From the IMG/VR virus record IMGVR_UViG_2778261509_000013: DNA of 6,413 nt; one strand, given 5' to 3'. The position numbers and the translations under genes were made by a program. This stretch comes from a virus. Lineage: Duplodnaviria; Heunggongvirae; Uroviricota; Caudoviricetes. Positions 2,931 through 5,819 of the stretch are shown in pieces; the stretch's first letter is position 1; the number at the start of each line of letters is the position of its first letter. The notes under the pieces are model-generated. The model was not told where the DNA came from, made no database searches, and saw nothing but the letters and a program-made list of their open reading frames with translations.

Positions 2931-3173
2931 ATGGGCAAAGAATATAAAACTCTCATTAACAAAGCACTTGAGCGTTTTTATTTTCGCTTAAGTGCATCAG
3001 GCGCTCATGCTGAACGTGCAGCCCGTGACTCATTGACCAGGGCAATCCGGAGTCTGTATGACGTGGCTTTTTACGCTGATGATCTGGATGCACTTAACGA
3101 ACTTTCCGAGCTGATCTGTGCCGCAGAATGCGGGGAACATATTGAACCGTATAAGCTGGGGAATATTGCATGA
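2931..3173 (+). CDS. Hypothetical early protein, 80 aa
   Basis: ATG at 2931 (ORF track starts at GTG 2928) with AAGGG 7 nt upstream. The stop TGA overlaps the next ATG (ATGA at 3170..3173). Confidence 0.6.
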   Translation: MGKEYKTLINKALERFYFRLSASGAHAERAARDSLTRAIRSLYDVAFYADDLDALNELSELICAAECGEHIEPYKLGNIA

Positions 3174-3283
3174 GTATATTTATCTCATGGCTTGTTCTGA
3201 TTATTTCGGTGGTTTGCGCAATTGGTATTATGCGAATTATTCATTCAGTAAAAAAGATTGAACGTTTTTTCACTGGCGAATAA
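3170..3283 (+). CDS. 37-aa single-pass membrane peptide (MSIFISWLVLIISVVCAIGIMRIIHSVKKIERFFTGE); not in ORF track
   Basis: ATGA start/stop overlap with the upstream gene; GGGGAA about 6 nt upstream. The translation is an N-terminal hydrophobic helix followed by a charged tail, the architecture of small membrane toxins and phage membrane peptides. Confidence 0.4.
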   Translation: MSIFISWLVLIISVVCAIGIMRIIHSVKKIERFFTGE

Positions 3284-3376
3284 CAGCATAAACAAAACAC
3301 CAGATTAAATACGAAAACCTGAAAACAATCCGCATTCGCGGAGGCGTTCGCACACGTAAATAACGGAGATACAAAA

Positions 3377-3745
3377 ATGTACGCAAAAGAAGAAGGCATT
3401 ATTCACAACCTGAATGAAATCGCAGATATGCAAGGTGAAGTAGCAAAAGAAGCCATGGCGAATGGCCACATGGACACCGCAACTCTCTCATTAATAATCG
3501 CAAAAACTGCTACTGAAGCCGCTGAAATCATCGAAAAACAGGCCCACGAACTGGAAGTTCTCAGGGCACAGCGAACAAAAGAAAATTCGCCCGCCACCAA
3601 TATCGGCAAGCGAGTTCGCCTCACTGTTGCTGACGACAAAGTTTACATCATCGTGGCTGAAGACCAGGAGAAACTCTTAATAAAGACAATCTCCGCCAGC
3701 CCCGCTCTGGAAGTTAATAAAAAAGAAGTCCACTTCATTGACTGA
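3377..3745 (+). CDS. Hypothetical early protein, 122 aa, acidic, predicted helical N-terminal half
   Basis: ORF-track ORF with GGAG 8 nt upstream of the ATG. No recognisable family. Confidence 0.65.
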   Translation: MYAKEEGIIHNLNEIADMQGEVAKEAMANGHMDTATLSLIIAKTATEAAEIIEKQAHELEVLRAQRTKENSPATNIGKRVRLTVADDKVYIIVAEDQEKLLIKTISASPALEVNKKEVHFID

Positions 3746-3757
3746 CGGAATAACGCA

Positions 3758-4087
3758 ATGGAGAAGCTGAAATATCACATGGCTCTGATGAGCCACATAT
3801 TGAAAAGCGCAAGTGGCTTTTATGTATACCCGTTCAGTCCTTCATGGGATGCGGAGCTACAGCAGCTACTGAATGAAGGCATTCTCATCGCAACGAGCAA
3901 GTACAACGCGATTTTTCATCACAACGGCAACGTCGTTGAAGTATGGATTGCTAATCGCTGGTACGGCTACGGCTGGCTGAACCGCGTTAACGGACGCGAG
4001 ACTGACGCCCGTTGCACCCGCCCACGCTTTCGCACCATGTACCGCCTGCATCAAATGGTGCAGGCCTTCCAGGCAAAGGAAACGTAA
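3758..4087 (+). CDS. Hypothetical early protein, 109 aa, Trp/Tyr-rich
   Basis: ORF-track ORF with a weak Shine-Dalgarno (GGA); an internal start is possible. Its stop overlaps the next start (TAATG at 4085..4089). Confidence 0.55.
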   Translation: MEKLKYHMALMSHILKSASGFYVYPFSPSWDAELQQLLNEGILIATSKYNAIFHHNGNVVEVWIANRWYGYGWLNRVNGRETDARCTRPRFRTMYRLHQMVQAFQAKET

Positions 4088-4290
4088 TGGCAATTAAGCA
4101 TTTTCCCGTCGTTCGCTTTACCTCCAGAGAGCGCGAATACGAGGTCGACGAACGCCTGATTACCACAATCGACAAACACCGTTCAGAAAAGGATGCACAT
4201 CACATCTATCTCACTGACGGCACTTACTTCTGCGCCACGAATGTGGTGCGGGTGAACCTTATCCGACAGGTACAGGAGTCACGCAGATGA
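4087..4290 (+). CDS. Hypothetical early protein, 67 aa (MAIKHFPVVRF...)
   Basis: The ORF track starts at 4012 with an unlikely N-terminal extension. The ATG at 4087 is preferred: AAGGAAA lies about 6 nt upstream and TAATG couples it to the upstream gene. Its stop overlaps the next ATG (ATGA at 4287..4290). Confidence 0.55.
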   Translation: MAIKHFPVVRFTSREREYEVDERLITTIDKHRSEKDAHHIYLTDGTYFCATNVVRVNLIRQVQESRR

Positions 4291-4532
4291 CCATTCTGGA
4301 CTACATCGCCGCCAATCCGGGTTGTAGCGGTGGAGAAATCGCCGCAGCACTGAATACCCCAACCACAGCCATTAATGCGGAGTTACGCCGACTCTGGCGC
4401 AGCGGTTCAGTCATAAGAAAAGAGCGCAAAACAGGCGGTCGCTTTTCTTACCAGATAAACCCGATGCCGTTCGGGTGCGGCAATCCACTTACCAACATGT
4501 TTAACCAGCTACTGAAGGAAGCCAGAGCATGA
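4287..4532 (+). CDS. Small putative DNA-binding protein (possible winged-helix), 81 aa
   Basis: AGGAG lies 8 nt upstream. The translation MTILDYIAANPGCSGGEIAAALNTPTTAINAELRRLWRSGSV looks like a winged-helix recognition unit (inference from sequence pattern only). Its stop overlaps the next ATG (ATGA at 4529..4532). Confidence 0.55.
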   Translation: MTILDYIAANPGCSGGEIAAALNTPTTAINAELRRLWRSGSVIRKERKTGGRFSYQINPMPFGCGNPLTNMFNQLLKEARA

Positions 4533-4828
4533 GCGCCATCAACCACCAGGAATTACGCGAACTGGCGACTGACCTGCAACGAATGGCAACGCCTCAAAAA
4601 TTACTGGCGTTTCGCGCAATGCTCTCGCCGTCTGCTGTGCTGGCGCTGCTGGATGAGCTGGAGCACGCCAGAACCACACCTCTCGCCATTCGCCTGACGC
4701 TCCATCATGAAATCGCTGATTTCTGCGCGACATTGGAGGCGCCAGGCGAACCGGAAACGCCGGAAGCAATACAGCAAGAGCTGCTGCAACGCATTGACAA
4801 GGTTTTTGATTTTTTTCTGAACCAGTAA
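4529..4828 (+). CDS. Hypothetical early protein, 99 aa, acidic and Leu-rich
   Basis: ORF-track ORF with AAGGAAG upstream; last gene before the structured intergenic region. Confidence 0.6.
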   Translation: MSAINHQELRELATDLQRMATPQKLLAFRAMLSPSAVLALLDELEHARTTPLAIRLTLHHEIADFCATLEAPGEPETPEAIQQELLQRIDKVFDFFLNQ

Positions 4829-4849
4829 GAAACCAGAGCATGCACACAC

Positions 4850-4878
4850 AAAAAAACCGCTTGCCATGCCGCAATCGG
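4850..4878 (-). terminator. Possible intrinsic terminator on the minus strand (imperfect hairpin plus U7)
   Basis: The minus strand reads CCGATTGC-GGCATG-GCAAGCGG followed by TTTTTTT (plus-strand A-run 4850..4856). The 8-bp stem has one mismatch. No minus-strand gene is evident upstream of it. Confidence 0.3.
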
Positions 4879-4950
4879 TCAGGTTACATTTCCGCTGCAC
4901 CTTATAAAACGGGTGCCGGGATTCTCAACCCGATACAGAGCAAAGCGCAT

Positions 4951-4972
4951 AACCGCGCCAGCGGTTTTTTTG
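4951..4972 (+). terminator. Rho-independent terminator-like hairpin plus T-tract on the operon strand
   Basis: AACCGC-GCCA-GCGGTT followed by a 7-T run (4965..4971), about 125 nt downstream of the 4529..4828 stop. Confidence 0.55.
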
Positions 4973-4983
4973 TGCGTACTGTA

Positions 4984-5012
4984 TTGCCACGTCTTTTTCG
5001 CGTCAGAATTAT
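4984..5012 (+). promoter_or_regulatory. Candidate sigma70-type internal promoter (TTGCCA-17 bp-AATTAT)
   Basis: The -35 TTGCCA (4984..4989) matches consensus at 5 of 6 positions, the spacer is 17 bp, and the -10 AATTAT (5007..5012) matches at 4 of 6. It lies just downstream of the terminator and upstream of the stable hairpin. By-eye match only. Confidence 0.3.
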
Positions 5013-5026
5013 GGCGGGGCGTACGG

Positions 5027-5045
5027 GGCCGACTTCGGTCGGGCC
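5027..5045 (+). other. Stable stem-loop with a C(UUCG)G tetraloop (GGCCGAC-TTCG-GTCGG(G)CC)
   Basis: Read directly: 5-bp perfect stem ccgac/gtcgg closing a TTCG loop (5034..5037), extended by 2 bp across a 1-nt bulge. There is no clean T-tract after it, so it is unlikely to be a terminator. Confidence 0.5.
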
Positions 5046-5064
5046 GGATTCTTTGCTCTCCGGT

Positions 5065-5105
5065 GTTGAGAACCCTGTACGTCTCGCCACCCCGAGATTC
5101 TCAAC
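5065..5105. repeat. Inverted repeat GTTGAGAA-N25-TTCTCAAC upstream of the 5151 gene; related motif copies at 4921..4945 and 5051..5058
   Basis: Perfect 8-bp arms at 5065..5072 and 5098..5105. The motif ATTCTCAAC also occurs at 4921..4929. A second motif, GAGCAAAG, occurs at 4938..4945 and 5133..5140, with its reverse complement CTTTGCTC at 5051..5058. Confidence 0.5.
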
Positions 5106-5150
5106 TCTGGATGGTGAGTTATTTCTATCACCGAGCAAAGAGGCCACACC

Positions 5151-5381
5151 ATGGCAAACCGCAAACAGCACCGCGCTATCGCGGAGCGTCGTCACATCCA
5201 GACTGAAATCAACCGCAGACTTTCCCGCGCATCACGCGTCGCGCAAATCATGCACATCAATATGTTGCATGAGCGCAGCCACGCACTATCAAACATTTAT
5301 TCCGCCTCTGTTTTCAGCTATCTGGCGGATGATCTGCACGAGCTTCAACAGCTCATCCAGCAGCAAAACAAACTCCATTAA
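5151..5381 (+). CDS. Hypothetical small basic protein, 76 aa (MANRKQHRAIAERRHIQTEINRRLSR...)
   Basis: AAAGAGG lies 7 nt upstream of the ATG. The Arg/Lys/His-rich N-terminus suggests nucleic-acid binding (inference). Confidence 0.55.
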   Translation: MANRKQHRAIAERRHIQTEINRRLSRASRVAQIMHINMLHERSHALSNIYSASVFSYLADDLHELQQLIQQQNKLH

Positions 5382-5453
5382 TTCCTGTTCCGGGCCTTTC
5401 CTGCACCTTGCGGCGGGAGGCCTTCGCACATCTGTAACAAGAGGATTGCCGCA

Positions 5454-5819
5454 ATGATTCTCGCCAACGACTTTCTTGAATACCTGCTCAACACAGAGCG
5501 TGATCTTGCCGCTCGCGTACGTGATCGTTATGACATGTATCTGAAATCCCTGCCTGTACCGCAGCTCGCTGACGGAAAGATTGTTATTGATGGTCGCTAC
5601 ATGATTGACAGCCACGAGGGAAATTACAGGCTTTACCGCATTGAAGGTGGCACCCCGTCCGTTATTGGCATTTACCAGCGCCCATCCTCTGCAATCGTCG
5701 ATGTGATTGCCGACAGCATCCGCATCACACATCGCCATGCCGACACAGAAGACACCGTGCTGGAAATTCAGCGGCTGGCTGCCGTCTGCCGCGACACCCT
5801 GAATGGCATGACGAAGTAA
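5454..5819 (+). CDS. Hypothetical protein, 121 aa
   Basis: AAGAGGA lies 9 nt upstream of the ATG; it ends 6 nt before the replication gene start. Confidence 0.6.
   Translation: MILANDFLEYLLNTERDLAARVRDRYDMYLKSLPVPQLADGKIVIDGRYMIDSHEGNYRLYRIEGGTPSVIGIYQRPSSAIVDVIADSIRITHRHADTEDTVLEIQRLAAVCRDTLNGMTK

Follow-up and report, generated by a model that had tools for sequence, protein, structure and literature searches.

Do four small genes, chained from one to the next by overlapping stop and start codons, encode the subunits of a single machine, or are they neighbours that happen to share an operon? This question is raised by positions 3758 to 4828 of a 6,413-nucleotide (nt) stretch of viral DNA (IMG/VR record IMGVR_UViG_2778261509_000013; hereafter the window, meaning that stretch at its full length), in which four open reading frames (ORFs) follow one another, named here after their lengths in amino acids (aa):

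o109: 3758..4087, + strand, 109 aa; ATG at 3758, TAA at 4085-4087
o67: 4087..4290, + strand, 67 aa; ATG at 4087, TGA at 4288-4290
o81: 4287..4532, + strand, 81 aa; ATG at 4287, TGA at 4530-4532
o99: 4529..4828, + strand, 99 aa; ATG at 4529, TAA at 4826-4828

A sequence-only reading had described these four ORFs and their TAATG, ATGA and ATGA joints, and both the sequence and the ORF list bear it out (gTAATGg for o109/o67, cagATGAcc for o67/o81 and gcATGAgc for o81/o99). It went on to propose that the overlaps imply obligate translational coupling and a multi-subunit module of fixed stoichiometry. We consider it likely that the four are instead accessory genes in a polycistronic early lytic operon running from cox to A, and that they fall into three independently exchangeable units rather than one module, since presence and absence patterns differ between the genes and each of them occurs without the others. 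The first unit is o109 together with the gene upstream of it, o122; the second is o67 with o81; the third is o99.

All four ORFs appear to be real protein-coding genes, because their variable sites are biased towards third codon positions and their protein motifs are conserved. Counted by codon position 1/2/3, the variable sites among dozens of distinct sequences from related loci number 13/13/31 in o67, 19/8/48 in o81 and 24/19/52 in o99. For o109 the figures are 9/4/7, from close sequences that are too few, and its protein homologues, at 49-95% identity, retain the N-terminus MEKLKY and the motif RPRFRTMYRLHQ. As these homologues conserve MEKLKY from that point onwards, ATG 3758 should be the true start of o109; the start at TTG 3800 given to its RefSeq/PGAP orthologue (WP_227443321.1, 95 aa) is probably wrong, and the protein so annotated too short.

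The overlaps are where the idea of a single complex begins. On that explanation the four proteins are subunits of one assembly, a host-takeover or anti-defence machine for instance, with coupled translation enforcing fixed proportions, and three consecutive overlaps without gaps, conserved among relatives, speak in its favour: the 4-nt overlap is retained in 86 of 87 loci between o67 and o81 and in 60 of 60 between o81 and o99, and the 1-nt overlap of o109 with o67 is also kept among o109 homologues of 49-67% identity. However, each downstream ORF has its own Shine-Dalgarno (SD) sequence within the 3' end of the preceding gene (AAGGAA in o109 for o67, AGGAG in o67 for o81, AAGGAA in o81 for o99), so that coupling is possible but not obligate, and both re-initiation and fresh loading of ribosomes could take place. 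Moreover, identical types of overlap join unrelated genes across the early regions of Peduoviridae and lambdoid phages. DUF4754 and a 37-aa gene within the window overlap by ATGA; in phage P88 the ATGA chain extends past the o99 orthologue into unrelated genes for a membrane protein and a lipoprotein/serine protease; P2 orf78/B and orf80/81/82/83/A, along with the counterpart early ORFs of phage 186, are linked by 1- or 4-nt overlaps; and in lambdoid early regions unrelated small genes are joined in the same manner. Overlap of this kind is the normal architecture of an early operon and a recombination joint, not the sign of a multi-subunit machine.

How, then, are the four genes distributed? 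The window comes from a P88-like E. coli prophage (Xuanwuvirus, Peduoviridae), of which it is the early region int-C-cox-...-A, and its relatives are abundant: by megablast, many E. coli chromosomes carry it at 97.5% identity over 89% of the length, some part of it is matched in 1461 of 5426 complete E. coli genomes, and the nearest named phages, P88 and P88_4B11, have the same gene order. We gathered 88 loci, comprising three annotated phages, two E. coli chromosomes, the lambdoid Stx phage L006 and IMG/VR prophage contigs retrieved via o81 and o109, and mapped each window protein onto all of them. No pattern of presence and absence common to all members was seen. The o67-o81-o99 stretch is complete in 1043 of the 5426 E. 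coli genomes and partial in 282 more, whilst the segment that holds o122 and o109 (3170-4090) is full-length in 6 of the 1250 E. coli genomes matching part of it, and o109 is present in 6 of 85 related loci. Of 87 related loci, 23 lack o99, and there are E. coli prophages that retain o67 although o81, o99 and all that follows as far as the gene before A are gone. Neighbourhoods are not conserved at large distance either, whether for distant o67 homologues or for the lambdoid homologues of o81, and no natural fusion was seen. Considering that o109 is found in well under 1% of carriers, that o99 and o81 are each dispensable, and that partners change at greater evolutionary distance, we regard a four-subunit complex as extremely unlikely. 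The fixed stoichiometry of the sequence-only reading thus gives way before discordant distributions, shuffled alleles (see below) and the finding that the same overlaps join unrelated non-essential genes.

The most variable member, o109, is also the one whose comings and goings can be read most directly. Together with its upstream neighbour it sits in an insertion relative to the common P88-like arrangement:

o122: 3377..3745, + strand, 122-aa accessory protein (phrog_9338)
hot spot 1 insertion: 3360..4070, extra segment relative to the common P88-like arrangement

The left junction lies at about 3359, from alignment with loci L001 and L009, and the right one at about 4070, the point from which megablast aligns the sequence to P88-like phages (query position 771). 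In most relatives a conserved leader after the 37-aa gene (o37) leads straight to the o67 SD, and the distance from o37 to o67 takes at least four lengths: 200 nt in 60 loci, which is the empty site; 510 nt in 5; 640-650 nt in 14, which hold an o122-like gene alone; and 920-950 nt in 6, which hold both o122 and o109. The o122 homologues of the locus set, at 30-48% identity, accordingly stand alone in 14 loci and with o109 in 6, and wherever o109 is found in P88-like prophages an o122-like gene precedes it. At 30-40% identity, more distant homologues of o109 turn up in mEp phages, which are lambdoid, and in Edwardsiella phage GF-2 (nin region), within arrays of overlapping small hypothetical ORFs. 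We conclude that o109 and o122 are rare exchangeable cargo at a recombination hot spot; the insert has no sharp foreign-DNA signature in its guanine-plus-cytosine (GC) content. Just upstream of the junction, on the stretch that separates the 37-aa gene from hot spot 1, loci both with and without the insert have a conserved hairpin rich in GC (TCCGCATTCGCGGA, 3325-3345), with a terminator-like score on the - strand.

Could this cargo be directed against host immunity? The o122-o109 block, and possibly others of these genes, could be anti-defence cargo that is expressed early and neutralises a host immune system. The site is a hot spot with several length states, the block is rare and patchy with homologues in accessory early or nin regions of unrelated temperate phages, its expression would fall early in the lytic cycle, and its small proteins have no known relatives, all of which speak in its favour. 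We nonetheless think this role rather unlikely. Searches against PADLOC defence-system models returned chance-level matches only (E 0.011-0.035, 10-14 bits).

If four genes do not make one module, might two of them? One candidate is o67 with o81, where the product of o67 would modulate or co-bind with the winged-helix protein o81, for example as a co-factor or anti-factor to a regulator. The two genes are adjacent in every sampled P88-like locus, with the conserved ATGA overlap in 86 of 87; they persist together where o99 and the RNA module downstream of it are lost; and both proteins are under purifying selection. However, the allele classes of o67 (82-85% and at least 94% identity) are each found with both classes of o81 (93-95% and at least 98%), and recombination therefore separates the two genes freely. 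The pairing is also broken in other ways. In the prophages mentioned above o67 is kept without o81; downstream of distant o67 homologues, which lie in early operons of other P2-type prophages, there is a DUF4406 gene or a region called as a Phage_ASH ORF, not a winged-helix gene; and homologues of o81 at 31-46% identity, in Stx-type lambdoids, Serratia phage Eta and Klebsiella phage RothD, have no o67 beside them. Since close relatives dominate the sample, the adjacency may reflect shared ancestry only. A functional o67-o81 pair is therefore a possibility worth keeping in mind, albeit an unlikely one, and we would say the same of a two-protein partnership taken broadly, be it o67-o81 or o81-o99.

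One protein family could seem to settle the matter in favour of such a pair. The profile phrog_19053 (246 positions) matches both o67 and o81, as a Rosetta-stone fusion would; we rejected it as a frameshift fusion. In locus L063 (4299-4745) a 1-nt frameshift after o67 residue 48 continues out of frame into o81, o67 matches the phrog_19053 profile only up to residue 51, and no fused o67-o81 protein exists among the database matches, the L063 frameshift being the sole fused ORF found. This family, the only apparent fusion that could have been held up in support of a complex, is best explained by a frameshift fusion of the L063 kind rather than by a natural one, and stands as a trap for Rosetta-stone inference.

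The proteins themselves tell us unequal amounts. The sequence-only reading had called for homology and fold searches on each of them, and these yielded a weak match to FeoC/YhgG for o81 and no informative match for o67 or o109; in NCBIfam nothing rose above threshold for the window proteins. The predicted model of o67 is an all-β, five-stranded small β-barrel (SH3-like; predicted local distance difference test, pLDDT, 88), for which fold searches were uninformative, with no match to BFVD at E<=0.001, and sequence and profile searches of the PDB found nothing. When 1.84 billion representatives were searched exhaustively with a profile, 17 matched, all of them small prophage proteins save one spurious repeat protein. 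This gene is a core gene of P88-like early operons. For o109, sequence and fold searches, including a PDB sequence/profile search, returned no informative match.

That one member should be a small DNA-binding protein had also been suggested, and this is o81, in which a winged helix is confirmed by scores above threshold for Pfam MarR_2 (28.2 bits, cut-off 27) and HTH_24 (25.9 bits, cut-off 21.9), and the putative DNA binding is read from the fold only. The core MarR model PF01047 falls below threshold (13.7 bits, cut-off 24.6), and of the 162-position phrog_1687 profile only positions 69-149 are matched. Though annotated as MarR family, o81 is a minimal winged-helix protein that lacks the MarR dimerisation helices: it shares the winged-helix core of the MarR/HTH_24 regulators, but MarR proteins are typically about 140-160 aa long, as against 81 aa here. 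Its best PDB sequence match, a weak one (E 0.012), is the 78-aa winged helix YhgG/FeoC, to which o81 is similar in size and topology; the Fe-S site of FeoC is nevertheless impossible in o81, which has only two cysteines. What sets it apart from both MarR and FeoC is a family-specific tail, PFGxxNPLxxMFNQLLK. Across the homologues at 31-46% identity it is this C-terminal tail, and not the helix-turn-helix, that is most conserved, which suggests a conserved interaction surface. The protein has a net positive charge, as read from its sequence, and a scan of GTDB representative genomes with the o81 alignment found only E. albertii and two probable contaminant contigs.

The third unit, o99, belongs to phrog_4144 (E 2.6e-61), the only family that its C-terminal half matches, whereas phrog_250 and phrog_368 match its N-terminus only. 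Against Pfam Ead_Ea22 (PF13935) it scores 20.6 bits, below the cut-off of 27, over residues 25-48 only. Residues 1-46 match Ead_Ea22 proteins of the Stx phage L006 (phmmer E 1.7e-11; 45% identity by tblastn), whose own scores on PF13935 are 40.6 and 73.6 bits. A PDB sequence search found nothing, and hence no match to the Ea22 C-terminal domain. By these comparisons, o99 would be an N-terminal module of Ead/Ea22-like proteins (about 46 residues) attached to an unrelated C-terminal half. Lambda Ea22, the characterised member among these proteins, has been reported to be pro-lysogenic, biasing the lysis-lysogeny decision (PMC7093339, PMC10834534), and the latter report describes it as having a coiled-coil domain and a C-terminal domain, both of which the 99-aa o99 lacks. 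Like the Ead/Ea22 proteins, o99 is encoded in an early operon near a small winged-helix gene: in the early-left operons of Stx-type lambdoids, Ead_Ea22 genes are preceded, at a distance of one or two genes, by an o81 homologue. This recurring proximity of a winged helix and an Ead/Ea22-type gene across phage families is suggestive only, Ead/Ea22 genes being abundant there.

The independence of o99 is clearest in locus L062 (5016-5404), where it is replaced by an unrelated 48-aa ORF starting at the same ATG. In this locus o81 has lost its TGA stop and gained 18 residues, making it 99 aa, whilst the RNA genes and antirepressor-like gene downstream (isrK, C4 and o76, described below) are intact. 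A swap at the very ATG of the overlap means that overlap junctions act as recombination joints.

When would these genes be expressed? The ORF list and family searches identify the window as the immunity and early region of a P2-type prophage, with the following landmarks:

integrase gene: 1-1020, - strand (ORF list, family matches)
C-like helix-turn-helix repressor gene: - strand
Cox gene: 1536-1823, + strand

After cox comes a series of small + strand ORFs, DUF4761 and DUF4754 among them, and the window's end holds the beginning of the replication endonuclease A gene; with respect to the immunity switch, the four genes are on the Cox side. Given this placement and what is known of P2 and 186, their transcription would start at the repressor-controlled early promoter and would await infection or derepression/induction. 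Such a placement makes superinfection exclusion or lysogenic conversion unlikely, and the explanation that the genes are morons serving either function from the resident prophage can be all but dismissed. A nearby segment does vary between related prophages. Yet the genes belong to the early operon and come after its repressor-controlled promoter region; simple consensus scans found no promoter-like site before any of the four ORFs and no terminator-like site on the + strand in 3758-4828, the overall count of promoter-like sites equalling the shuffle expectation; and the P2 conversion genes old and tin are separate units with the opposite direction of transcription. The sequence-only reading had listed superinfection exclusion among the candidate roles, which we now think unlikely for genes in a repressor-controlled early lytic operon that have no convincing promoter or terminator of their own. 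Its notion of a variable moron cassette can be kept in part: o109 is indeed variable accessory cargo, but the promoter and terminator of a moron were not found in the consensus scans.

The early operon and the immunity module also have separate histories. The prophage of E. coli ETEC4069 (locus L004) is 100% identical to the window over 3170-4828; its integrase, repressor and cox differ from those of the window (40-49% identity), and it is integrated beside pheA, whereas prophages that match the window's int-C-cox adjoin pdxB. The early operon is therefore mosaic, recombining independently of the immunity and integration module.

A better frame for the four genes is provided by the small early genes of P2 and 186. 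P2 orf78 and orf80-83, and the unnamed ORFs of 186 between dhr and A, hold the same position, between cox/apl and A. As with the window genes, their size is small (60-120 aa), overlaps of 1 and 4 nt link each to the next, and the early promoter is the same; they are annotated as non-essential and without assigned function (the 186 genes as not essential). In 186, A is noted to require translation of the last of these ORFs for its own. The likeness is one of place and not of sequence, since the P2 and 186 early genes have no similarity to o109, o67, o81 or o99 (tblastn, E<1), whereas int, C and cox match. In this respect the sequence-only reading was right to say that none of the four resembles a P2 early gene, and right too that a B-like gene is missing: the window's ORF list holds no ORF of that size, and P2 B has no homologue in this interval of P88-like phages. 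Only one ORF of the window, o121 (121 aa, 5454-5819, just before A), gives a faint match to DUF5405 (E 0.086), to which P2 Orf83 and its counterpart in 186 belong. Both of those likewise sit before A, and o121 may be their divergent equivalent.

Direct orthologues, on the other hand, are at hand in P88 (NC_026014), whose gp08-gp10 correspond to o67, o81 and o99 at 85%, 99% and 92% identity, with gene order and overlaps unchanged. In P88 and in RefSeq prophages these orthologues are annotated as hypothetical, winged helix-turn-helix domain-containing, and ead/Ea22-like family protein, respectively. P88 has neither o122 nor o109, and carries extra genes (the membrane protein and lipoprotein/serine protease) after gp10. 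The cassette therefore consists of already-annotated hypothetical genes of a very common prophage type, positional counterparts of P2 orf80-83, and is not a new system.

Several points weigh against treating the four genes as exchangeable accessories. The adjacency and 4-nt overlaps of o67-o81 and o81-o99 are near-invariant in P88-like phages (86/87 and 60/60). The loci are mostly close relatives, with o81 at 93-100% identity, and the counts are of non-independent events; in particular, the loss of o99 in 23 loci may be traceable to one ancestral deletion. Functional assignment leans on weak analogy, o99 being below the Ead_Ea22 threshold with neither the coiled coil nor the C-terminal domain, and o67 and o109 have no informative relatives in sequence or fold searches. 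With these points taken into account, three separate units in an early lytic operon are still, in our opinion, the likely arrangement. Accessory roles early in the lytic cycle are the most likely ones, and on our preferred reading each of the four small proteins would modulate early lytic development or host physiology without being essential. In such a scheme the target of o81 would be DNA, or a partner contacted through its conserved PFGxxNPLxxMFNQLLK tail; o99 might act, perhaps as an adaptor, like the N-terminal part of the Ead/Ea22 proteins of lambdoid exo-xis regions; o67 and o109 could be small binders or inhibitors of host or phage targets; and o122 with o109, as exchangeable cargo, could have an anti-defence function.

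Downstream of o99 lies a second site at which genes come and go, followed by a pair of RNA genes and a small protein gene:

isrK small RNA (sRNA): 4897-4971, + strand (Rfam 60.5 bits, cut-off 50)
isrK intrinsic terminator: 4951-4972, + strand
C4 antisense RNA: 5007-5094, + strand (Rfam 78.5 bits, cut-off 45)
o76: 5151..5381, + strand, 76-aa Derepression-family protein (Pfam PF25738, 32.7 bits, cut-off 27)

The second cargo hot spot, between o99 and isrK (4829-4896), is empty in the window and in 27 other loci (28 in total), and in 34 loci holds roughly 0.6-1.8 kb of extra genes, as in locus L003 (3884-5030). In P88 it is this site that carries the membrane protein and lipoprotein/serine protease genes, ATGA-joined to o99.

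The isrK/C4 pair is a regulatory unit separate from the four genes. Two segments of C4 (5050-5059 and 5065-5075) are complementary to isrK boxes (4937-4945 and 4919-4929), and the same segments are complementary to boxes in the o76 leader (5133-5141 and 5098-5105), the first of which overlaps the o76 SD, AAGAGG (complementarity 5050-5058 / 5133-5141). Having all the complementary boxes of a P1-like system, including one across a ribosome-binding site, isrK, C4 and o76 look like an antisense switch of the P1 immI kind, in which translation of a small antirepressor-like protein would be repressed. A parallel is found in the isrK-orf45-anrP locus of Gifsy-1 (PMC4825925).

Is o99 tied to this switch? 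In the 23 loci without o99, isrK, C4 and o76 are jointly absent. Such a joint deletion could make o99 a functional part of the isrK/C4/o76 block, a proposal that is weakened by the exception L062, where o99 alone was swapped, and by the cargo lying between them in P88. A bolder version would have o81 and o99 as a portable two-gene regulator, shared by lambdoid early-left and P2-type operons, that feeds the Derepression-family antirepressor switch under isrK/C4 control, with o67 as a phage-group-specific co-factor. We think this very improbable; if true, it would link early lytic transcription to the commitment to derepress.

Two further observations concern the RNA genes themselves. A 21-nt inverted repeat (4844-4864 / 4957-4977, 90% complementary) brackets isrK, and in RNA arriving from upstream, by read-through of o99, it is predicted to pair (minimum free energy -51.4 kcal/mol, z -4.1) and to mask the 3' half and U-tract of the isrK terminator, whilst in RNA begun at the isrK promoter the terminator is predicted to form instead. 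The 5' arm, about 48 nt upstream of isrK wherever this distance was checked, is present in each of the 68 loci that fit the pattern, even where cargo separates o99 from isrK. Perhaps the repeat could be an antitermination device that depends on the promoter from which the transcript originates; its sequence is invariant and offers no covariation. Secondly, a 205-aa ORF (4840-5457, + strand) spans both RNA genes. It is called a 'transcriptional regulator' in phage records (NC_049391 gp51) or ash-family-like, and gene callers assign Pfam Phage_ASH to its counterparts. Its own weak Phage_ASH match (18.5 bits) covers residues 16-108, encoded by nt 4885-5163, the stretch of isrK and C4. This ORF is probably not a real gene, and Pfam Phage_ASH may partly model translated RNA genes.

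To conclude, a stop/start overlap in a phage early operon should not count as evidence for a protein complex. The analysis maps two cargo hot spots, before o67 and after o99, at which accessory genes are swapped exactly at start codons; these, along with the adjacent isrK/C4-antirepressor switch, are more interesting than the four ORFs taken as a unit. About one fifth of complete E. coli genomes carry the o67-o81-o99 trio, making these very common prophage genes that lack an assigned function, and that function, once shown, would fill a gap in the biology of P2-type prophages.

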